A stretch of DNA of 11,666 nt. Source: a virus (lineage: Duplodnaviria; Heunggongvirae; Uroviricota; Caudoviricetes). The stretch lies in the IMG/VR virus record IMGVR_UViG_2700989428_000001. One strand, 5' to 3'. Shown here in pieces: positions 1,850 through 11,666 of this stretch (position 1 is its first letter; each line of letters begins with the position of its first letter). A program made the position numbers and the translations under genes. Under the pieces are notes generated by a model that did no database searches, was not told the DNA's origin, and was given only the letters and a program-made list of their open reading frames with translations.

Positions 1850-2047
1850 AGACGATATCAGTATCAGCCAAAAAAATAGTTTAGCCGTCGATAATAAGCA
1901 GTGAAAATAATTTAAAATAATCACATAACGTATTGTTTATAAAAATAAATATTTCAAAAATGTTTGTTTTTCACGCGCTTTACAGCCCGAAAAGGCCGGA
2001 AGATACTTGCCCGCAACGAAGATTCCTTCATAACCGGGTAAGCAATG
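1850..2047 (+). promoter_or_regulatory. AT-rich adiA upstream region (expected acid/anaerobiosis-responsive adiA promoter)
   Basis: About 200 bp of AT-rich non-coding sequence (aataatttaaaataatcacataacgtattgtttataaaaataaatatttcaaaaatg) between the melR stop and the adiA start. Promoter elements were not mapped. Confidence 0.3.
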
Positions 2048-4344
2048 ATGAAAGTATTAATTGTTGAAAGCGAGTTTCTCCATCAAGACACCTGGGTCGG
2101 TAACGCCGTTGAGCGTCTGGCAGATGCTTTAAGCCAGCAAAATGTTACCGTGATTAAATCCACCTCCTTTGATGATGGTTTTGCCATTCTCTCTTCAAAC
2201 GAAGCCATTGACTGCCTGATGTTCAGCTATCAAATGGAACATCCGGACGAACATCAAAACGTCAGACAATTGATCGGTAAGCTTCATGAGCGCCAACAAA
2301 ACGTGCCGGTCTTCCTGTTGGGCGATCGGGAAAAAGCCCTCGCCGCAATGGACCGGGATCTGCTGGAGCTTGTCGATGAATTCGCCTGGATTCTGGAAGA
2401 TACCGCCGACTTTATCGCCGGACGCGCCGTTGCCGCGATGACCCGCTACCGCCAGCAGCTATTGCCGCCACTGTTCAGCGCGCTGATGAAATATAGCGAC
2501 ATCCATGAATATTCCTGGGCAGCGCCAGGCCACCAGGGCGGCGTTGGTTTTACCAAAACACCCGCCGGACGTTTCTACCATGACTATTATGGTGAAAATC
2601 TGTTCCGCACCGACATGGGTATCGAACGCACTTCCCTCGGTTCTTTGCTTGACCATACTGGCGCATTTGGCGAAAGCGAAAGATATGCCGCACGCGTATT
2701 TGGTGCCGATCGCTCCTGGTCGGTAGTCGTCGGTACTTCCGGCTCTAACCGCACCATCATGCAGGCTTGCATGACCGATAACGATGTAGTGGTCGTTGAC
2801 CGTAACTGCCATAAATCCATCGAACAAGGCTTGATGCTGACAGGCGCGAAACCGGTCTACATGGTGCCAAGCCGCGCTACAAGGTCTACATGGTGCCAAG
2901 CCGCAACCGCTACGGCATTATCGGGCCAATCTATCCGCAGGAAATGCAACCTGAAACCTTGCAGAAGAAAATCAATGAAAGCCCGCTGACCAAAGACAAA
3001 GCCGGGCAAAAACCGTCTTACTGCGTGGTGACCAACTGCACCTATGACGGCGTGTGTTATAACGCTAAAGAAGCACAGGATCTGCTGGAAAAAACCTCCG
3101 ATCGTCTGCACTTTGACGAAGCCTGGTACGGCTATGCACGTTTCAACCCGATCTATGCCGATCACTATGCCATGCGCGGCGAACCTGGCGATCACAACGG
3201 TCCTACCGTTTTCGCCACCCACTCCACCCACAAACTGCTGAATGCGCTGTCACAGGCCTCTTATATTCATGTACGTGAAGGTCGTGGGGCGATTAACTTC
3301 TCCCGCTTCAACCAGGCCTACATGATGCATGCCACCACCTCCCCGCTGTATGCCATCTGCGCATCCAACGACGTGGCGGTGTCGATGATGGACGGCAACA
3401 GCGGCCTGTCACTGACCCAGGAAGTGATCGACGAAGCGGTTGATTTCCGTCAGGCGATGGCGCGGCTATATAAAGAGTTCACCGCTGACGGTAGCTGGTT
3501 CTTCAAACCGTGGAACAAAGAAGTCGTCACCGACCCACAAACCGGCAAAACCTATGACTTTGCTGACGCACCAACCAAACTGCTGACCACCGTTCAGGAC
3601 TGCTGGGTCATGCATCCGGGCGAAAGCTGGCACGGCTTCAAAGATATTCCGGATAACTGGAGTATGCTCGACCCGATTAAAGTCAGCATCCTTGCTCCGG
3701 GAATGGGTGAAGATGGTGAACTGGAAGAAACCGGTGTTCCGGCGGCGCTGGTCACAGCCTGGCTTGGTCGCCACGGCATTGTGCCTACCCGTACCACTGA
3801 CTTCCAGATTATGTTCCTGTTCTCTATGGGCGTGACCCGTGGGAAATGGGGGACTCTGGTTAACACCCTTTGCTCCTTCAAACGCCACTATGATGCCAAC
3901 ACACCGCTGGCGCAGGTGATGCCGGAACTTGTTGAACAATATCCTGACACTTACGCGAACATGGGGATTCACGATCTGGGTGACACCATGTTTGCCTGGC
4001 TGAAAGAAAACAACCCTGGCGCACGGTTGAATGAAGCCTATTCCGGCCTACCGGTGGCGGAAATCACCCCGCGTGAAGCGTACAACGCGATTGTCGACAA
4101 CAATGTCGAACTGGTATCCATTGAAAATCTGCCAGGACGTATCGCGGCAAACTCAGTTATCCCGTATCCGCCAGGAATCCCGATGCTGCTGTCTGGTGAA
4201 AACTTCGGCGATAAAAACAGTCCGCAAGTAAGTTATTTACGCTCGCTGCAATCCTGGGACCATCATTTCCCTGGATTTGAACACGAAACAGAAGGGACAG
4301 AAATTATTGACGGTATTTACCACGTTATGTGTGTGAAAGCGTAA
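2048..4344 (+). pseudogene. adiA: biodegradative arginine decarboxylase, frameshifted by a 29-bp insertion at 2876-2904
   Basis: ORF 2045-2989 encodes the N-terminal ~277 residues (MKVLIVESEFLHQDTWVGNAVERL...LTGAKPVYMVPSR) and then runs out of frame into a stop. ORF 2890-4344 in another frame resumes MVPSRNRYGIIGPIYPQEMQ... through the C-terminus ...IIDGIYHVMCVKA. Removing 29 bp restores one 755-codon frame (2297 - 29 = 2268 nt = 756 codons including stop). Confidence 0.85.
2854..2904 (+). repeat. imperfect tandem duplication: 22-bp unit ggtctacatggtgccaagccgc twice (2854-2875, 2883-2904) separated by 7-bp filler gctacaa
   Basis: Read directly from the sequence. The period is 29 bp, not a multiple of 3. 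The filler resembles the downstream native cgctac, suggesting a templated or slippage-type event. Confidence 0.85.
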
Positions 4345-5650: not shown

Positions 5651-6228
<578 letters not shown>

Positions 6229-6316: not shown

Positions 6317-6706
6317 TTACTCTTTTTTCTCCGTATCTGCATCGGGTTCATCAGCAAATAGCTTGCCCTGCATCCGATCCAGTTCTTCTTTTCTTACCCG
6401 CTTAACCACGCTGTAGACCCACTGAAGCGAAACACCAAATTTGCGGGCCAGTTCGTGGTGGTTGCGTCCGTTAAACTCCCTGAAGATTTCCCGGTCGCGC
6501 TGACTGACCTTCCATACCATGCCCATCGGGAAATAAACGTTTTGCCCGCCCCAGACCTGCATCATTCGGTTCGCGACGGCCTGACCAATCTGGTCGGCAA
6601 CTTCGGGCTCAATATCAATAATCTCGCGAACGGTCTCAGAGGTATGCTGTGCCAGTTCCACCAGGAGTTCCGGCCCCTTACTTCGAAACTGATTCAGGTC
6701 GCTCAT
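6317..6706 (-). CDS. Mor/C-family-like small transcriptional activator (middle-operon-regulator position)
   Basis: 129 codons (MSDLNQFRSKGPELLVELAQHTSETVREIIDIEPEVADQ...FNGRNHHELARKFGVSLQWVYSVVKRVRK...), with GGGAG 6 nt upstream. Size, acidic N-terminus, C-terminal HTH-like segment and position after a GemA-like gene fit Mu Mor. The assignment is from recall, not a search. Confidence 0.55.
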   Translation of the reverse strand: MSDLNQFRSKGPELLVELAQHTSETVREIIDIEPEVADQIGQAVANRMMQVWGGQNVYFPMGMVWKVSQRDREIFREFNGRNHHELARKFGVSLQWVYSVVKRVRKEELDRMQGKLFADEPDADTEKKE

Positions 6707-7127
6707 GTTTGACTCCCGCAGCTCTGCGCTGCCACTTCTTCAGTTTCTCAATAACACTGCTTGCCTGTTCAGTACTGAGCCAGCGCAGGGCGCTGATGCC
6801 CGTTTCCCGCTTGATCCACCTCGCTAATGCATTTTCTGAACGGTCACGAACAATGCCGGCAGCAGCCATTTCAAGCCATAGCGCACGAATTTTCCTGGAC
6901 TGCGGATGGTTATCAAGCGGTAAACCGGAGCTGGCTTTTCTGGCTGGTTTAACGCGAAAGCCTTTCTTTTTCATGGATTCCAGCACGCAGTTTAGTTGTG
7001 TGGTATCCATTCCTTTGGTTGAGGCTTTACCGGTCAGCCCCTGTAACATCTGGCGGTAGGTGTCTTCATCCATACCCAGTTCATTACGGGCAATATGGAT
7101 AAGCTGTATCAGGCGTTTTTTCTGCAT
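6678..7127 (-). CDS. GemA-like (Mu gp16 / DUF1018-type) regulatory protein
   Basis: 149 codons (MQKKRLIQLIHIARNELGMDEDTYRQMLQGLTGKASTKGMDTTQLNCVLESMKKKGFRV...), with GGAG 5 nt upstream. Its 3' end overlaps the next gene by 29 nt. Position immediately upstream of the Mor-like gene is as in Mu. Confidence 0.5.
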   Translation of the reverse strand: MQKKRLIQLIHIARNELGMDEDTYRQMLQGLTGKASTKGMDTTQLNCVLESMKKKGFRVKPARKASSGLPLDNHPQSRKIRALWLEMAAAGIVRDRSENALARWIKRETGISALRWLSTEQASSVIEKLKKWQRRAAGVKHERPESVSK

Positions 7128-7128
7128 A

Positions 7129-7335
7129 TCATCTCCTTTTTTTCAGTCTGTCGGCAACAATGTCGGTTGCAGCTGGCAGGGTGACTGGCCAGAACAACAT
7201 GACGGCGGTCATGTACAGGATGTAATGCGCGGTGTCGTAGTGCCTGCCATAGCCCAGGGAACGATGAAGTCTTGCGCTGCATGATCCTGCGTACATATAC
7301 CAGAAAAGAAAACAGACAATGGTTTCAGTAGTCAT
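7129..7335 (-). CDS. small hydrophobic (membrane) protein, 68 aa
   Basis: Internal start MTTETIVCFLFWYMYAGSCSARL... is preceded by GGAGG with an 8-nt spacer. The stop is 1 nt before the GemA-like ATG. The 120-codon six-frame ORF is probably an over-extension. Confidence 0.4.
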   Translation of the reverse strand: MTTETIVCFLFWYMYAGSCSARLHRSLGYGRHYDTAHYILYMTAVMLFWPVTLPAATDIVADRLKKRR

Positions 7336-7555
7336 TCTGAATACCTCCCCATTCGATATGAATATTACGGGCAGCAATGACAGGGTCGTTATTCCACCAT
7401 GCACCTGACATGTATTTTTCAACCTGTTCGCGTCCGGCAATAACACCAATTGTGATCCCCGGCCTGACGTTCTTAAAAAAGGCGCGGGCAAAAAGGTATC
7501 TGGCAGATATTCGGCAGGCTTTTAATTTCCGGCTTTTACCTGATAGCGTAATCAT
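7325..7555 (-). CDS. hypothetical protein, 76 aa
   Basis: MITLSGKSRKLKACRISARYLFARAFFKNVRPG.... Its ATG overlaps the upstream stop as ATGA, GGAGG lies upstream, and its 3' end overlaps the next start by 11 nt. Confidence 0.4.
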   Translation of the reverse strand: MITLSGKSRKLKACRISARYLFARAFFKNVRPGITIGVIAGREQVEKYMSGAWWNNDPVIAARNIHIEWGGIQNDY

Positions 7556-8235
7556 CTGGCCTCCAGTTTCTGTTGTTCCTGCCCACTGACCGGGCGGTGC
7601 AGTCTGACGTTCTGCCCTTCACGAAACCCCGCATAGCGCGAGGCGTCGCCATTGCGGCTTCTTCCCGGTTTACGCGCCCTGGTGGTTTGCGTCTGCGGGT
7701 ATTTATGTTCCAGCCACTGCTGCATCAGTTCACGCTCATCATCGGTCAGGGCAAAGGACTGTATTTCACTGATAACGGCCAGCACCCAGCCTTCGGCAAA
7801 CTGGTCTCCACGGCTGGTGCGGGTGGCGGTTTTTATTCTTTTGTTCTGTGCACTGATATACTGCTGACGCGCCTTTTTCAGCTGACGGGCCAGCACTTCC
7901 CAGGTGTATGCAGCCAGTGCCGCACGTTCCCGGTTGCCGTAGAACCCCACAGACGGATGCGTGCCGGGGTGAATGATGGAGTTAACACCAAATACCTCGC
8001 GGATGATGTTCATCAGGCCCAGCATGTAGCGCGGTGGACGGAGACTGCCTGTCGGCCAGTAGTGACTGATGGTTTCATCAATATCACTCATAGCAATGTC
8101 GGAATGTGTGATGCCGTGAACATCCATCAGTTTACGGGCTCGGCGCAGTGCCAGAGCGGCCTCGTGCGGGTTGCCGGATGCGGCCAGCGCCAGCAACTTT
8201 TTCAGTTTCTCAATGTGTTTATTCTGGTCTGTCAT
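7552..8235 (-). CDS. hypothetical protein with DUF2786-like N-terminal helix (KLKKLLALAASGNPHEAALALRRARKLM), about 227 aa
   Basis: Start chosen at the ATG at 8235, which overlaps the upstream stop as ATGA; the six-frame ORF extends 12 codons further to 8271 with no SD. The basic C-terminal tail is rich in R/K/Q. Confidence 0.5.
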   Translation of the reverse strand: MTDQNKHIEKLKKLLALAASGNPHEAALALRRARKLMDVHGITHSDIAMSDIDETISHYWPTGSLRPPRYMLGLMNIIREVFGVNSIIHPGTHPSVGFYGNRERAALAAYTWEVLARQLKKARQQYISAQNKRIKTATRTSRGDQFAEGWVLAVISEIQSFALTDDERELMQQWLEHKYPQTQTTRARKPGRSRNGDASRYAGFREGQNVRLHRPVSGQEQQKLEAR

Positions 8236-8447
8236 TGTTCTGTATCTCCGGTATTTTTCTGCCGTTTCCATGCCCGGACAGCGTCGGACAGCTCTTTCAG
8301 GCTGTATGCTGCTTTAAGCTTTTCCCATAACCACTGTGTTGTTATGTGCATCAGCAGGGCAGCCAGGGCTGCCCCCGCACTGAGGCATGTCGCCAGGCCA
8401 GTAAGAATCAGTGTCCATGCGGTGATTTCCCTGAGTATGTCAGCCAT
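8232..8447 (-). CDS. small membrane protein, 71 aa (one predicted TM segment LILTGLATCLSAGAALAALL)
   Basis: MADILREITAWTLILTGLATCLSAGAALAALLMHITTQW..., with GGGAGG 6 nt upstream of the ATG. Confidence 0.45.
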   Translation of the reverse strand: MADILREITAWTLILTGLATCLSAGAALAALLMHITTQWLWEKLKAAYSLKELSDAVRAWKRQKNTGDTEQ

Positions 8448-8461
8448 TGAATGCCTCCCGG

Positions 8462-8758
8462 TTACTCGTTCGTGTAAATCACGCCCAGTCGTGCAGCCAG
8501 ACGTTCCAGTTTTTTCTGTTTGTGGAAGTCAATCAGCCGGTCCATCCCCTGAAGGCGCAGTTGCTCTGTCATGATTTCCACGTCTGCCAGCTCTGCCGCG
8601 AGGTCACTTTCGCTGCCCTGTCCGTTCAGGTTGCGGGCGGCACTGGCCGCCAGTTCAGCGGCCTCTTCTGCCAGTTTCAGGGCCTGTGCGTCCGGCCCGA
8701 AACGCTGCAGGGCCAGACGGTAGAGGGCGGTGCGGGTGAGTTCGGTGTTTCGTGTCAT
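8462..8758 (-). CDS. MazG-like all-alpha nucleoside triphosphate pyrophosphohydrolase domain protein, 98 aa
   Basis: MTRNTELTRTALYRLALQRFGPDAQALKLAEEAAELAASAARNL...DLAAELADVEIMTEQL.... The paired motifs LAEEAAEL and AAELADVEI resemble the metal-binding EExxE ... ExxD helices of MazG/HisE-type NTP-PPases. GAGGG lies upstream. Confidence 0.45.
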   Translation of the reverse strand: MTRNTELTRTALYRLALQRFGPDAQALKLAEEAAELAASAARNLNGQGSESDLAAELADVEIMTEQLRLQGMDRLIDFHKQKKLERLAARLGVIYTNE

Positions 8759-8767
8759 GCCGCGCCC

Positions 8768-9040
8768 TCAGTGCTTCCGGCTGACGGTGATGTGCAGGCC
8801 GCCTTCTGCAGTGGTTTCCATCCGGTACGGCACCTCATGCTCTGCCGTGTGGGTGAGTGTGTTCATCAGTACCTGCAGGGCAGCCTCCTTTCCGTTGGTC
8901 GCCACAATGGCCTGTGTGGCCATGCTGATTAGCGCCGTCAGGACGTGCTTCACATCGGTGAGGTCGCGGCATTCACACTCGTTGACATAGTGTTCAACAA
9001 GAGTTCGGGTGCGCTGTCGTGCTTCCTGTGGGGTAATCAT
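8768..9040 (-). CDS. hypothetical protein, 90 aa
   Basis: MITPQEARQRTRTLVEHYVNECECRDLTDVKHVLTALISMATQ.... GGGAGG is 7 nt upstream, and the ATG overlaps the upstream stop as ATGA. Confidence 0.45.
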   Translation of the reverse strand: MITPQEARQRTRTLVEHYVNECECRDLTDVKHVLTALISMATQAIVATNGKEAALQVLMNTLTHTAEHEVPYRMETTAEGGLHITVSRKH

Positions 9041-9231
9041 TGCGCGTCCTCCCTGTCAGGGCGGGAGAATTCCATGACGGGCACGTCCGCCGAAAAATGC
9101 TGGCTGCAGTACGGGCAGACCAGGGTGACACGTACTGCAGGTATGTGATACTTACCGGACATCACGGCGATGGCGCTGTGAAAACGCAGGGCTGTTATAT
9201 CCCTCTCGCACTGAATACATTTAAATATCAT
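9037..9231 (-). CDS. small zinc-ribbon-like protein, 64 aa (CxxC ... CxxC)
   Basis: MIFKCIQCERDITALRFHSAIAVMSGKYHIPAVRVTLVCPYCSQHF..., with Cys pairs CIQC and CPYC about 30 residues apart. Strong SD GAGGAG with a 9-nt spacer. Confidence 0.45.
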   Translation of the reverse strand: MIFKCIQCERDITALRFHSAIAVMSGKYHIPAVRVTLVCPYCSQHFSADVPVMEFSRPDREDAQ

Positions 9232-9251
9232 AATTTAATTCTCCTCTGTTT

Positions 9252-9284
9252 CCGGCGTGCAGAAGCCCGCGGCGCTGACGCCGG
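9252..9284. other. GC-rich hairpin in the only sizeable intergenic gap of the phage operon (between gam and the zinc-ribbon ORF)
   Basis: 7-bp stem ccggcgt (9252-9258) / acgccgg (9278-9284) with a further paired inner segment. It is flanked by AT-rich sequence and is not a canonical terminator in either orientation. Confidence 0.3.
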
Positions 9285-9328
9285 AATAAAAAAGAAAATG
9301 TTTTTATTAAATAATTAACGTGGTGTGT

Positions 9329-9859
9329 TTACTGCACATCCTGCTCAAAAGGAATTATTGAAAAATCCTCAATATCACTTTTTATGGTAATACCGGGAAT
9401 ATTTTTCACAGCCTCTTTTTCATTCAGAATGGCATCTTTATTTATTTCCTCCTTTACACGAATAAAGCGCTCAAGCCCCAGACGTCTCAGCAGTTCAATG
9501 ACATTATCCGCCCCGCGAATGCTGACTGACGGCGGACGGTTTCGCCACTGCACCTCGCCGGTGGTGAGGTTAGCGAACTTCACCTTCCCGTTGCCGGTCA
9601 GTTCATCACGGTGCGCCTCACACCATGTCTGGATACCGGACTGCAGTTCGGCCATGCGTTTTTTCAGGCTCTCGGTGAGCGGGGCATAACGTGCAGTGAT
9701 GTCGCCAATGGTGTCATTCATTTCTGTTTCAGCCCTGACCAGTTCACGTTGCGCGTCACCAAGCAGTCTGATTCCCTCAATGACCTCTTCGCGTGTCCCC
9801 GGCACCCAGAGTGCTGCTGCGGCTTTGATACGTTTTGCCCCTTTTGTACTTTTTGCCAT
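9329..9859 (-). CDS. gam: Gam-like host-nuclease inhibitor protein (Mu Gam family, DNA-end binding)
   Basis: 176 codons: MAKSTKGAKRIKAAAALWVPGTREEVIEGIRLLGDAQRELVRAETEMNDTIGDITARYAP...SVSIRGADNVIELLRRLGLERFIRVKEEINKDAILNEKEAVKNIPGITIKSDIEDFSIIPFEQ. This closely matches the Mu Gam family as I recall it. GGAGGAG 9 nt upstream. Confidence 0.8.
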   Translation of the reverse strand: MAKSTKGAKRIKAAAALWVPGTREEVIEGIRLLGDAQRELVRAETEMNDTIGDITARYAPLTESLKKRMAELQSGIQTWCEAHRDELTGNGKVKFANLTTGEVQWRNRPPSVSIRGADNVIELLRRLGLERFIRVKEEINKDAILNEKEAVKNIPGITIKSDIEDFSIIPFEQDVQ

Positions 9860-9886: not shown

Positions 9887-10156
9887 TTACCACAAAGATT
9901 CCGGCCACACGACGCGACAGCCGTGCAGTTCGAAAACGCCCTGACGGAAATGTCCCCTGTGGTCATGACCGGTATACAGATAACAGGCCTTTCCCTGCTC
10001 AAGCATGCGCATGCAATGCGCACTCCGGGAAACGCGGATGACAGGTTTGTTACCCCTGATGGTGATGCTTTGTACATCCGTGTTCGTCGCCTTAAGCGCC
10101 ATAATGGCTGACTGCACTTTGCTGATTTGCTGGTTGATACCTGTGGTGGATTTCAT
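9887..10156 (-). CDS. hypothetical protein, 89 aa, in the position of Mu kil (between B and gam); His/Cys-rich C-terminal half
   Basis: MKSTTGINQQISKVQSAIMALKATNTDVQSITIRGNKPVIRVSRSAHCMRMLEQGKACYLYTGHDHRGHFRQGVFELHGCRVVW. It starts 2 nt after the B-like stop. Function is unknown. Confidence 0.45.
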   Translation of the reverse strand: MKSTTGINQQISKVQSAIMALKATNTDVQSITIRGNKPVIRVSRSAHCMRMLEQGKACYLYTGHDHRGHFRQGVFELHGCRVVWPESLW

Positions 10157-10158
10157 TA

Positions 10159-11325
10159 TTAAACCCCTTTGACAACGTCAGCGTTGACCTGTGGAACCCC
10201 GATTTCAGCGGCCAGATTCATGGCGGCTATTACCAGGTTACTGACGGCCAGCGGATACAGCAGGCTGACCATATTTTTACGATGACTTCCCGGATTGCTC
10301 AGGCGGGCACGTATGGCATCCACTGCGCTGGCGTCCATAATGTCCGTCAGTTGTTTACCGGCCCGTTGCAGTTTGAACGTCAGAAACTCTTCAAGGTTAT
10401 TGTCCAGAGGCAGAAGTTCGACCACCTCACAGCGCTGAACGACTTCACGGACTTCCATATTGCGTTCAGACAGTTTTGTCGCCAGTTCCGGCTGGCCAAT
10501 CAGCACGATGGACAGCAGTTTTTTGAAACCGGACTCCAGCTCAAAAAAGCGTTTGAGGTGTTTCAGTGTCGGAATGGGCAGACTGTGGGCCTCCTCAATC
10601 ACCAGAACGTGGCTGAACCCCGCCTGGCTGCTGTCTTTCAGGACGCGATGCAACTGGCGAAAGCGGGCGTCCTGACTGCGTCTGATGCTTTCCAGTGGTG
10701 CGATGGTACTGATAATGGCTTCGGCAATCGCTGCTGCCTTCAGGGTTTTCCCTTTCACATCGTTGTCTTCCATAGCGATGATGTATGGCTCGATAACAAT
10801 TACCGGCGCATTCTCGCGGTTGATACGTTCAGTCAGGTCGCGGCGCAGCGTGGATTTACCCGCACCGGACTCACCGATGACGGCCATAAACCCACCATGA
10901 CGGGCTGTCTGGTACAACGCCTCACGCACGTAGCGAATATCCGGGGTGGTGAACACATCATCAGAACCCTGCATGGCTTCGTCGGCGAACGGGTCACGGA
11001 AAAGACCAAACGCTTTTTTGGTTGCTGGAAATAACACCTGTTTTTTGAGTAACATATTCTCTTCCTCACTGAGGCTCGTTTTATCTGTGGTACCCGCTGT
11101 ACGGGGCGTGGCCGCGCCCTGTACAGCATCAAAACTCTTCGTTGTATCAATCCCCTGACTTTCCAGCCAGGACGCAAGACGCCGGCGCACTTCTCCGGGG
11201 CTGGTGCGGGGCCACGCGTTATGATTCACAATCTGGGCCAGCGTGGCCTCAGAAACATCGACAGCTCTCGCCACCACCGCCTGTGGAATACGGGCCTCTT
11301 TCAGTTGCTGCTTCAGTACCAGCAT
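10159..11325 (-). CDS. Mu B-like transposition ATPase (AAA+ target-DNA activator) with N-terminal HTH-like segment
   Basis: Walker A GESGAGKS, Walker B-like hhhhIEEAH (HVLVIEEAHSL), and an N-terminal IPQAVVARAVDVSEATLAQIV HTH-like stretch. ATG at 11325 is preferred because GGAGG lies 5 nt upstream; the six-frame track starts at a GTG at 11364. It directly follows a transposase-like ORF. Confidence 0.7.
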   Translation of the reverse strand: MLVLKQQLKEARIPQAVVARAVDVSEATLAQIVNHNAWPRTSPGEVRRRLASWLESQGIDTTKSFDAVQGAATPRTAGTTDKTSLSEEENMLLKKQVLFPATKKAFGLFRDPFADEAMQGSDDVFTTPDIRYVREALYQTARHGGFMAVIGESGAGKSTLRRDLTERINRENAPVIVIEPYIIAMEDNDVKGKTLKAAAIAEAIISTIAPLESIRRSQDARFRQLHRVLKDSSQAGFSHVLVIEEAHSLPIPTLKHLKRFFELESGFKKLLSIVLIGQPELATKLSERNMEVREVVQRCEVVELLPLDNNLEEFLTFKLQRAGKQLTDIMDASAVDAIRARLSNPGSHRKNMVSLLYPLAVSNLVIAAMNLAAEIGVPQVNADVVKGV

Positions 11326-11335
11326 GTTTCCCTCC

Positions 11336-11666
11336 TCAGTTGCCGTTAACAATGCTGATAACACTGCTGCGGGCCGGTGTGGTCAGCGTGGCCATGACTT
11401 CATCCAGTGCGGCTTCCGGTACGCCGTCCGGGTACTGTGCCGTTAACTGGCGGTAATGTTCCGGCGTCCAGGTAAGGCCGTCGGCGCTGAACTTATCGCG
11501 CAGGGCTTTCGCGGCCTCCACATGAGTCATGGGACGTTGTTCAGTGCGCGGCCCGCGTACGTCAGAGGCCTGACCACGCTTCGGCATATAGGCCGGAAGT
11601 GTGGTGTCGTCGATATGTTTATACGGGTCAAGCCGCCCGCCGAACGGCAGCGCCTTCGCCTTGCTT
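11336..11666 (-). CDS. C-terminal ~110 codons of an upstream gene, probably Mu A-like DDE transposase (partial; 5' end beyond window)
   Basis: The frame is open from the window edge to the TGA at 11336-11338 (...LDPYKHIDDTTLPAYMPKRGQASDVRGPRTEQRPMTHVEAAKALRDKF...SVISIVNGN*). The call rests on position immediately upstream of the B-like gene; no catalytic motifs are visible in this fragment. Confidence 0.45.
   Translation of the reverse strand, partial: SKAKALPFGGRLDPYKHIDDTTLPAYMPKRGQASDVRGPRTEQRPMTHVEAAKALRDKFSADGLTWTPEHYRQLTAQYPDGVPEAALDEVMATLTTPARSSVISIVNGN

Follow-up and report, generated by a model that had tools for sequence, protein, structure and literature searches.

The window, by which we mean the whole 11,666-nt stretch of viral DNA analysed (IMG/VR record IMGVR_UViG_2700989428_000001), carries a BcepMu-type (Bcepmuvirus) transposable prophage inserted in adiC and 99.6% identical to Escherichia phage PhiKM (PQ738613; classified Bcepmuvirus). 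Its genes follow the order ExeA/MuB-like protein, an 89-aa gene, Gam, seven small genes named O1 to O7, GemA and Mor (Table 1), and the prophage ends at ~6154, where it abuts a truncated adiC (junction 6153-6155). The early arm is inverted and terminates at the prophage end, as in BcepMu; the phage is not of the Mu type. A truncated prophage, suggested by the position of Mor beside host DNA, was rejected, because BcepMu shares the identical layout and the terminus reads ...CA; the ends of Mu also finish in CA. The full operon context was obtained from E. coli AZ 191, in which a divergent repressor lies upstream and the cassette is downstream of the transposase. The early promoter lies outside the window. 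The Gam protein is 60% identical in amino acids to Mu Gam, a DNA-end-binding protein and inhibitor of host nucleases, and a DUF3164 protein stands in its place in 30 of the 56 related loci or prophages that we compared, a set that includes 24 GTDB-species loci of other genera.

Table 1. Features of the early cassette and its flanks, in the direction of transcription.
Feature	Position	Strand	Description
Gam (upstream flank)	9329-9859	minus	PF07352 1e-40
Leader element	9229-9306	minus	in the 97-nt gam-O1 spacer
U-rich tract	9285-9300	minus	5' of the hairpin stem
GC hairpin	9252-9284	minus	arms CCGGCGT and ACGCCGG, then AAACAG
O1 Shine-Dalgarno	9241-9246	minus	GAGGAG, then the O1 ATG
O1	9037-9231	minus	64 aa; zinc-ribbon protein; cassette gene no. 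1
O2	8768-9040	minus	90 aa; soluble; orphan
O3	8462-8758	minus	98 aa; single-domain MazG-like (all-alpha) nucleoside triphosphate pyrophosphohydrolase (predicted)
O4	8232-8447	minus	71 aa; one transmembrane segment
O5	7552-8235	minus	227 aa; basic; DUF2786 + DUF7168; raw ORF reaches 8271
O6	7325-7555	minus	76 aa; basic; orphan
O7	7129-7335	minus	68 aa; small membrane protein; raw ORF reaches 7491 with a TTG start
GemA (downstream flank)	6678-7127	minus	PF06252 and PF08765 matched by the GemA/Mor pair
Mor (downstream flank)	6317-6706	minus	PF06252 and PF08765 matched by the GemA/Mor pair

The original prediction had described seven co-directional ORFs of 64-227 aa between gam and gemA, and these were confirmed by ORF calling, by NCBI's PGAP, whose annotations of other E. 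coli strains contain the same seven, and by dN/dS ratios (Nei-Gojobori) below 1 in all seven. The genes are tightly packed, as described there. A GGAG-type Shine-Dalgarno site lies 5-12 nt upstream of every start, and ATGA overlaps are read at the junctions O1/O2, O4/O5 and O5/O6; O6/O7 overlap by 11 nt, and the remaining junctions are gaps of 9 nt (O2/O3), 14 nt (O3/O4) and 1 nt (O7/gemA). The overlapping stops and starts fit translational coupling. In a promoter and terminator scan, neither strand of the cassette showed a terminator-like site, nor did its coding strand show a promoter-like one; the sole match in the interval was a chance-level one on the plus strand. None of the seven proteins matched in an NCBIfam scan or, as a defence system, in a PADLOC scan (a chance-level JetC, E 0.026, was the only return), and no Pfam family scored above its cutoff for O1, O2, O4, O6 or O7.

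Coding constraint is evident in O5 (dN/dS 0.08-0.15), O1 (0.11-0.2), O3 (0.12-0.19), O6 (0.13-0.17) and the O7 family (0.14-0.16), and is relaxed in O2 (~0.40) and O4 (~0.39, from only 8 allele pairs). These last values, the lack of family annotation, and the few alleles and dispensability of O4 would be expected if O2 and O4 were decaying or fortuitous frames that a prophage of recent spread had brought with it. We think this unlikely: each is an intact frame with a Shine-Dalgarno site, in register with its neighbours, the ratios of both are well below 1, and both give full-length matches to PHROG families, though to ones without assigned function (phrog_3691 for O2, 4e-56; phrog_3958 for O4). 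Moreover, an O2 homologue of 50% identity occupies the same position in Apirhabdus (L023). A 67-aa gene at the equivalent Limnobaculum position matches O2 weakly (BLASTP E = 0.02).

The spacer between gam and O1 contains a structured leader element (fold -29.5 kcal/mol, z = -3.9) whose 7-bp stem is 93.6% paired, with 2 compensatory pairs. This element is single-copy in 55 IMG/VR contigs, is kept in relatives with a different upstream gene, and has a homologue in phage Mu, in the spacer after gam. It is not an intrinsic (Rho-independent) terminator, because the U-rich tract precedes the stem on its 5' side and what follows on the 3' side is AAACAG and no U-tract, the opposite strand being equally devoid of one; the terminator scan did not report it either. 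No Rfam family matched between 6100 and 10200, and a covariance model of the hairpin found no match in the Xenorhabdus, Photorhabdus, Dickeya, Salmonella diarizonae, Aeromonas and BcepMu loci. A third hairpin class (L109/L117), recognised by a loose flank pattern, was dropped as a chance match, given its unrelated context. A position at a recombination joint could account for part of the conservation of the hairpin, which probably determines what share of the early transcript, or of its translation, continues into the cassette. Literature searches on Mu-like prophages in ST131, BcepMu in E. coli and Mu early terminators returned nothing on the cassette genes or the hairpin.

Among the seven proteins, O3 is the one for which the original statement that functions cannot be assigned from sequence proved too pessimistic, since its biochemical class is that of a small MazG-like NTP pyrophosphohydrolase, a predicted activity in line with the MazG-like label given to it at first. 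O3 matches phrog_2245 (5.5e-34) and has an intact acidic metal-binding motif, EExxE(12-28)ExxD, whose residues E31, E32, E35...E56 and D59 are invariant or at least 90% conserved (alignments A2 and A4, and the 35 distant relatives of A5). It is predicted to be all-helical and appears, in the structural model, to adopt a helical bundle like that of solved MazG proteins, which are its best structural matches; the closest are Sulfolobus SSO3215 (1vmg), integron iMazG (2q5z) and B. subtilis YpjD (2gta). It shares with such single-domain proteins its size (~90-100 aa), its helices and the EExxE...ExxD motif, but only 17-24% sequence identity. Pfam MazG (PF03819) and PRA-PH (PF01503) gave nothing above the gathering score for O3 and its relatives, distant ones included; below threshold, PRA-PH was matched by 12 of 17 family members (best E 0.0017) and MazG by 8 of 17 (best E 0.019). 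Searches of solved structures with the O3 sequence, singly or as a profile, returned chance matches only, and hhalign aligned just 9 columns of the O3 alignment with E. coli MazG. O3 belongs to a large clade outside Pfam coverage, with > 10,000 cluster-level relatives, and we consider it somewhat likely that it is an active MazG-type enzyme. A lone phage MazG domain can act in counter-defence: by hydrolysing (p)ppGpp, which it depletes, the MazG-like Atd1 of Pectobacterium phage PcCB7V counteracts abortive infection driven by TIR (bioRxiv 10.1101/2022.06.09.495361), and the concept of such a role for O3 is taken from it.

O5, announced as a DUF2786-like protein, indeed matches PF10979 (DUF2786; 4.8e-11, 42.9 bits, cutoff 23.9) and, C-terminal to it, PF23771 (DUF7168; 1.1e-25, 90.4 bits, cutoff 25.5), the two-domain architecture of other DUF2786 + DUF7168 phage proteins. 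The protein (pI 10.1) consists of an N-terminal DUF2786 helical hairpin, the DUF7168 alpha/beta domain and long basic helices. A KH (K-homology) domain was rejected for the central part, which did not show the beta-alpha-alpha-beta-beta-alpha fold with a GxxG loop, and sequence searches of solved structures, with the single sequence or a profile, gave only chance matches. Phages of many hosts have the same fold, and homologues are known from numerous virulent phages as well as from prophages, Mu-type and non-Mu alike, where they lie in early regions. In the literature we found listings of DUF2786 and DUF7168 but no functional work on either; O5 therefore gains a name and no mechanism, the family having no described function. 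It is a basic two-domain protein that probably binds nucleic acid, or else a protein partner, in lytic development.

The zinc-ribbon protein of the original prediction is O1, with the pattern CxxC...30...CPxC, in which none of C5, C8, C39 and C42 varies among 11 sequences of identity down to 21%. O1 matches phrog_3401 (1.2e-40), another PHROG without assigned function, as are those matched by O6 (phrog_3681) and O7 (phrog_6436). Since no specific Pfam family reaches cutoff, O1 cannot be placed in a functional subfamily such as Mu Com. Two single-TM peptides had also been announced, which is roughly right: hydropathy gives O4 one segment (~residues 12-37), but O7 has, besides one clear segment, a probable second one, short and N-terminal. 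O7 exists as two allelic types ~40% identical, that of the window in 3 of the 56 loci and the other, 'O7b', in 46. O6 (pI 10.2) has 43 homologues, mostly 62-99% identical and restricted to Enterobacterales, among which no Pfam domain was detected save one partial match to PF13177 (P0151). Judging from size, charge and hydropathy, O1 is most likely a putative small zinc-ribbon binder or regulator, and O4 and O7 are most likely putative inner-membrane peptides of a type that phages employ in takeover of the host or in exclusion; no role is proposed for the orphans O2 and O6.

The cassette is the positional counterpart of the semi-essential early region of Mu, as had been proposed. In Mu (gp11, gp12, gp13, gp14, gp54; AF083977), this region has the same position and orientation, after B/gam and before gemA/mor, likewise contains small, tightly packed and largely uncharacterised genes, and also begins after the homologous hairpin-containing spacer downstream of gam, although the early arm of the window is, unlike that of Mu, inverted and ends at the prophage terminus. 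With BcepMu (AY539836) the window shares Mor (gp01) and GemA (gp02) at the left end and, upstream, an ExeA-type ATPase (gp08) and an rve-type (Tn552/IS1604-like) transposase (gp09), and its proteins match those of BcepMu at 7e-146 (ExeA), 1e-44 (Mor) and 4e-34 (GemA). The genes between the flanks are different in each phage. Phmmer detected no similarity between O1-O7 and Mu gp5-gp14, gp54 and gp18-20, the best match being O1 against gp6 (E = 0.022 in a tiny database), and the BcepMu slot (gp03-gp07) holds SSB, HU, a 205-aa conserved gp05 and two hypothetical genes, none similar to O1-O7. The notion of an accessory region could have failed if the genes were familiar Mu semi-essential genes or lacked coding constraint; it stands on both counts, because no Mu or BcepMu early gene was matched and constraint is present.

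The content of the region is variable, as anticipated: the 56 loci display 19 cassette architectures between conserved flanking genes, and mean identity across related loci is 90% for the MuB-like protein and 84% for GemA. At the threshold used, O7 was present in 49 loci, O5 in 47 and O1 in 45, so that O1 is among the most widely retained members and O5 and O7 are similarly frequent; O3 was present in 41, O2 in 23, O6 in 22 and O4 in 11. O2, O3, O4 and O6 are each missing from many intact relatives in this set, and O4, the rarest, is found in none of the 24 GTDB-species loci of other genera, its IMG/VR carriers having no host label. The cassette is therefore a patchwork of separate genes and not one system, a mosaic of single-gene modules independently gained, lost and replaced.

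The original prediction had pointed here to a previously uncharacterised system, and the seven genes might be read as one coordinated multi-component machine, for instance for anti-defence or host takeover. Their tight packing and translational coupling would suit such a machine, and so would their distribution in E. coli: the cassette is present in 629 of 5,426 complete genomes (~12%), ST131 being well represented, 400 of the 629 copies are at least 99% identical, and the seven-gene order is essentially unchanged in most. High identity among these copies, however, comes from one prophage having spread recently, phage early operons are tightly coupled as a rule, and the members occur independently, O1 being the sole cassette gene retained in Photorhabdus relatives. 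Even within E. coli, strain GABEEC10 has lost O4 through an in-frame O3/O4 deletion and carries divergent alleles of O2 and O7 with the remainder kept, its O2 allele being 76% identical against 96-97% for the neighbouring genes. Genes that come and go singly, with no PADLOC match, speak against a system, and we regard a single machine as very improbable.

Nor are the phage and its cassette new, being already annotated in hundreds of genomes. PhiKM and the prophage of the 629 E. coli genomes share the cassette at 99.6-100% nucleotide identity, with all seven proteins 98-100% identical to O1-O7. Existing annotations are hypothetical throughout except for DUF2786 and, in recent PGAP runs, an NTP pyrophosphohydrolase family protein. 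The PhiKM annotation places an opposite-strand ORF where O1 lies, but PGAP and sequence conservation favour O1.

Taken together, the seven genes are genuine, and we consider it likely that they form a variable accessory segment in the leftward early operon of a BcepMu-type prophage in adiC. They lie on one strand between the transposase, the ExeA/MuB-like ATPase and Gam on one side and the regulators GemA and Mor on the other, and the layout and the analogy with Mu suggest that they would be co-transcribed with the transposition genes from the early promoter at the onset of lytic development. Expression in the lysogen, if any, would be low. Mu semi-essential genes are transcribed at low level in lysogens from the early promoter, on the long Pe transcript, and are largely uncharacterised (PMC3820752), which leaves some room for the view that O1-O7 are lysogenic-conversion or superinfection-exclusion cargo, expressed in the lysogen against other phages; the variability of the region and the presence of O4 and O7, small membrane proteins of a kind that often mediates exclusion, agree with it. 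We find it improbable, given that the genes are downstream of the transposase in a repressor-controlled operon, that neither a promoter of their own nor a PADLOC match was found, and that virulent phages, which do without lysogeny, have O5-type proteins too.

Within the accessory segment of an early lytic operon, each gene may act separately on host physiology or on phage DNA metabolism. O3 might remove alarmone/(p)ppGpp-type nucleotides, which would keep the host permissive, or else non-canonical (d)NTPs, which would keep the precursor pool clean. Tentatively, we propose that at least one cassette gene is a so far unrecognised counter-defence or host-takeover effector and that expression of the accessory region is gated by the post-gam hairpin common to Mu and BcepMu-type coliphages; O3 and the phage-wide O5 are the best candidates for such an effector. 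An equally tentative reading makes O1, O3 and O5 accessory factors of replication or transposition in the service of phage DNA metabolism, through nucleotide-pool sanitation or DNA/RNA binding, and not counter-defence. It draws on the SSB and HU genes of the BcepMu slot, on the action of the flanking Gam and GemA at DNA ends, on the classical house-cleaning role of MazG-type enzymes, to which the nearest structures of O3 belong, and on the occurrence of O5 homologues in virulent phages and prophage early regions. Yet a considerable minority of relatives that are intact in other respects lack these genes, which are therefore not required for transposition, and this reading overlaps with the account of an accessory segment preferred here, from which it differs just in the presumed target.

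The seven genes are thus accessory early genes of a prophage very common in E. coli. They can be exchanged one by one, already stand in databases as hypothetical, and are as such an ordinary finding. The value of the region is that of a well-delimited test bed, with seven genes, natural presence/absence variants, and flanks recently tied to a known defence in a related phage: in the Mu-like phage JBD30, Gam and GemA each license targeting by Gabija (bioRxiv 10.1101/2025.08.30.673261). The leader hairpin shared with Mu could in turn explain how the expression of semi-essential genes is dosed in Mu-type phages.

The left 6.1 kb of the window is E. coli chromosome, carrying melR, adiA, adiY and the first 169 codons of adiC. 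Matches to adiC from other E. coli genomes end at about 6155, and from about 6154 rightwards lies a transposable prophage with all its genes on the minus strand. The segment 6153-9400 shares 99.6% identity with Escherichia phage PhiKM, classified as a Bcepmuvirus. We rejected the possibility of a truncated prophage, since the Burkholderia phage BcepMu shows the same layout, in which Mor (gp01) and GemA (gp02) occupy the left end and the transposase and ExeA-type ATPase are placed further in; the early arm is simply directed at the end of the genome. The same prophage adjoins ycaL in E. coli AZ 191, and there the operon continues upstream with the transposase gene, three more genes and a gene for a small DNA-binding protein, followed by a divergent repressor.

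The prophage is inserted within adiC (5651-6160), and its minus-strand end, ...TAATCA, has a CA-3' terminus resembling the ends of Mu. Other strains carry it at other chromosomal sites (adjoining ycaL, ybjD or ybtA), as expected under random transposition. We also observed a 29-nt insertion at 2880-2908 that divides adiA (2045-4344, plus strand) into two ORFs; it consists of GTCTACATGGTGCCAAGCCGC repeated after an 8-nt spacer, GCTACAAG, and is absent from the best-matching E. coli genomes. Provided that the insertion is genuine and no assembly artefact, arginine-dependent acid resistance of this strain would have been inactivated twice, once by the split of adiA and once by the prophage in adiC.

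Features of the prophage early region, and occurrence of the cassette genes among 56 related loci
Feature	Coordinates	Strand	Length or match	Loci with cassette gene
ExeA/MuB-like ATPase	10159-11364	minus		
89-aa gene, between ATPase and gam	9887-10156	minus	89 aa	
Gam	9329-9859	minus		
Leader element, in 97-nt gam-O1 spacer	9229-9306	minus		
O1	9037-9231	minus	64 aa	45/56
O2	8768-9040	minus	90 aa	23/56; 8 more with a possibly related 67-aa gene
O3	8462-8758	minus	98 aa	41/56
O4	8232-8447	minus	71 aa	11/56
O5	7552-8235	minus	227 aa	47/56
O6	7325-7555	minus	76 aa	22/56
O7	7129-7335	minus	68 aa	49/56 (either allele)
GemA	6678-7127	minus		
Mor	6317-6706	minus		
DUF3164 gene in gam place	L003-L014, L023 (collected loci), about 7830-8560		203 aa; PF11363 at 7.6e-80	

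The seven small ORFs between gam and gemA (O1 to O7, with O1 nearest gam) form a compact cassette, as the original prediction had described. ATGA overlaps join O1/O2, O4/O5 and O5/O6, the overlap of O6 with O7 is 11 nt long, gaps at the remaining junctions measure 1-14 nt, and a GGAG-type Shine-Dalgarno site precedes all seven starts. PGAP called exactly the same seven CDS in two other strains, and each ORF matches a full-length PHROG family, with homologue alignments favouring shorter starts for O5 and O7. The dN/dS values (Nei-Gojobori) are 0.11-0.2 for O1, 0.12-0.19 for O3, about 0.11 for O5, 0.13-0.17 for O6, 0.14-0.16 for the O7 family and about 0.4 for each of O2 and O4. In a consensus scan, the cassette showed no promoter-like site on the coding strand, and both strands were free of terminator-like sites; the sole match there was at chance level (plus strand, 9125-9152). 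A 333-aa TTG-initiated ORF on the plus strand (7573-8574), antisense to O3-O5, was taken as fortuitous, since PGAP does not call it and the constraint fits the minus-strand frames. The PhiKM record annotates a plus-strand hypothetical CDS over O1 (L001 8945-9166, window about 9097-9318). The PGAP calls, the conserved cysteines and the dN/dS values favour the minus-strand zinc-ribbon O1, and the PhiKM CDS is probably a mis-call in the GenBank record.

The cassette sequence is already widespread and annotated: it is present in 629 of 5,426 complete E. coli genomes, 400 of them at an identity of at least 99%, and many belong to ST131. GemA led us to 24 loci of other species and the leader element to 55 viral contigs; we then compared the architecture of the 56 loci in which the MuB-like gene and GemA are both present. 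These two flanking genes are well conserved (average identity 90% for the MuB-like protein and 84% for GemA) and the interval between them is variable, taking 19 different architectures. The 89-aa gene, which received no family assignment, is kept in 51 of these loci at an average identity of about 73%. Photorhabdus relatives carry only O1 and a 49-aa ORF. In E. coli GABEEC10 an in-frame deletion (L029 3577-3882, compared with window 8232-8758) has removed O4 and fused the end of O3 to the last O4 residues, generating a 101-aa O3 that ends in GDTEQ; the same locus holds divergent alleles of O2 (76% identity) and O7 (38%) among neighbouring genes at 96-97%. Gam is itself exchangeable, its position being held by a DUF3164 gene in 30 of the 56 loci. 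Given the 19 architectures, the unequal gene counts, the GABEEC10 replacements and the exchange of Gam, the cassette shows the pattern of a mosaic accessory region of single-gene modules and not that of a co-inherited system; a single previously uncharacterised system is not supported. As a side observation, the early region of a Mu-type Aeromonas prophage (L031) also includes a DUF3164 gene, located between Kil and GemA, and no Gam was called there. Targeting by Gabija is reportedly licensed by Mu-type Gam (bioRxiv 10.1101/2025.08.30.673261), and the gam/DUF3164 swap might reflect defence pressure.

Clear counterparts of Gam, GemA, Mor and the ATPase emerged when the early genes were compared with those of Mu and BcepMu. 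O1-O7 resemble none of Mu gp5-gp14, gp54 and gp18-20, nor BcepMu gp03-gp07, and in BcepMu the slot is filled instead with SSB and HU genes. The proposed placement in an accessory early region holds, as the cassette is the positional equivalent of the Mu semi-essential region, which lies on the long early transcript and has been termed largely uncharacterised (PMC3820752).

The leader element upstream of O1 is also common to the prophage and Mu. Along the spacer, a U-rich tract is followed by a 7-bp GC stem (9252-9284), the sequence AAACAG and the O1 Shine-Dalgarno site, and its predicted RNA fold (-29.5 kcal/mol, z = -3.9) pairs the Shine-Dalgarno region with the U-rich tract. The element matches no Rfam family. 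An intrinsic terminator was rejected, as the hairpin is without terminator features; translational control of the first cassette gene is one candidate role. Pairing in the stem is 93.6% across 20 distinct sequences, with four invariant pairs and two pairs showing compensatory UA/CG exchanges, each of which is probably a single evolutionary event. The element occurs once per genome in the 55 viral contigs, and is nearly unchanged in relatives that carry DUF3164 upstream in place of gam and an O1 only about 55% identical. Its upstream gene is Gam or DUF3164, and its downstream gene is O1 in 64 cases, Mu gp11 in 22 and another gene in 2. In Mu itself (AF083977 6345-6426, L027) the homologous element follows that phage's own gam and precedes the unrelated gp11. 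Against the relatives that have DUF3164 upstream, the Mu element is 83% identical in the 5' flank and 72-76% in the 3' flank, and its hairpin sequence differs, with the GGCG/CGCC base in common. Against the window variant all three segments reach only 54-59%; by comparison, the gam DNA of Mu and the window is 62% identical. The other candidate roles for this element, common to BcepMu-type coliphages and phage Mu, are a conserved recombination joint and a hairpin acting in processing or stability where core and accessory early genes meet.

Among the cassette proteins, O3 matches phrog_2245, 'nucleoside triphosphate pyrophosphohydrolase', at 5.5e-34. Of 17 O3 family members, 12 show a match to Pfam PRA-PH and 8 one to Pfam MazG, all of them below threshold. 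Close relatives show little or no change in the O3 acidic motif (E31-E32-x-x-E35 ... E56-x-x-D59), which is also kept in 35 distant ones at 32-54% identity. At E <= 1e-3 an exhaustive profile search returned 10,695 cluster representatives, most of them 90-100 aa long, and ten sampled from these had no match to Pfam MazG. We conclude that O3 is a small MazG-like enzyme, probably active, of a clade not covered by Pfam. Small related MazG proteins are regarded as house-cleaning enzymes. The phage MazG-like protein Atd1 reportedly hydrolyses (p)ppGpp and blunts TIR-driven abortive infection (bioRxiv 10.1101/2022.06.09.495361). O3 may act in either manner, and we rank neither reading above the other.

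O5 scores above threshold for DUF2786 and DUF7168, and a literature search on both found no description of function. It is basic (pI 10.1), and a good structure model built from 31 homologues (pLDDT 84.7) predicts a helical hairpin at the N-terminus, followed by a beta-alpha-beta-beta-alpha domain and by long helices, on which lies the most conserved, basic stretch (K132-W150). Foldseek searches against viral models recovered the fold from phages of many hosts, both temperate and virulent; every one of these matches is uncharacterised. Homologues occur in a Mu-type prophage of Aeromonas, placed between the MuB and GemA genes, and in an unrelated Komagataeibacter element, within its early region.

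O1, always first in the cassette, has four invariant cysteines (CxxC...CPxC) kept down to 21% identity. O4 has one transmembrane segment; in O7 one is clear and a second probable, and the loop that separates them is conserved. O6 is basic and limited to Enterobacterales; O2 is under relaxed constraint. PADLOC and NCBIfam scans of O1, O2, O4, O6 and O7 gave no match. O2 carries no annotation and O6 no family assignment. Of the seven genes, two (O3 and O5) could be placed in families, O3 with a defined biochemical class. The main residual value of the cassette lies in the MazG-like O3, the phage-wide O5 family and the leader hairpin in common with Mu.
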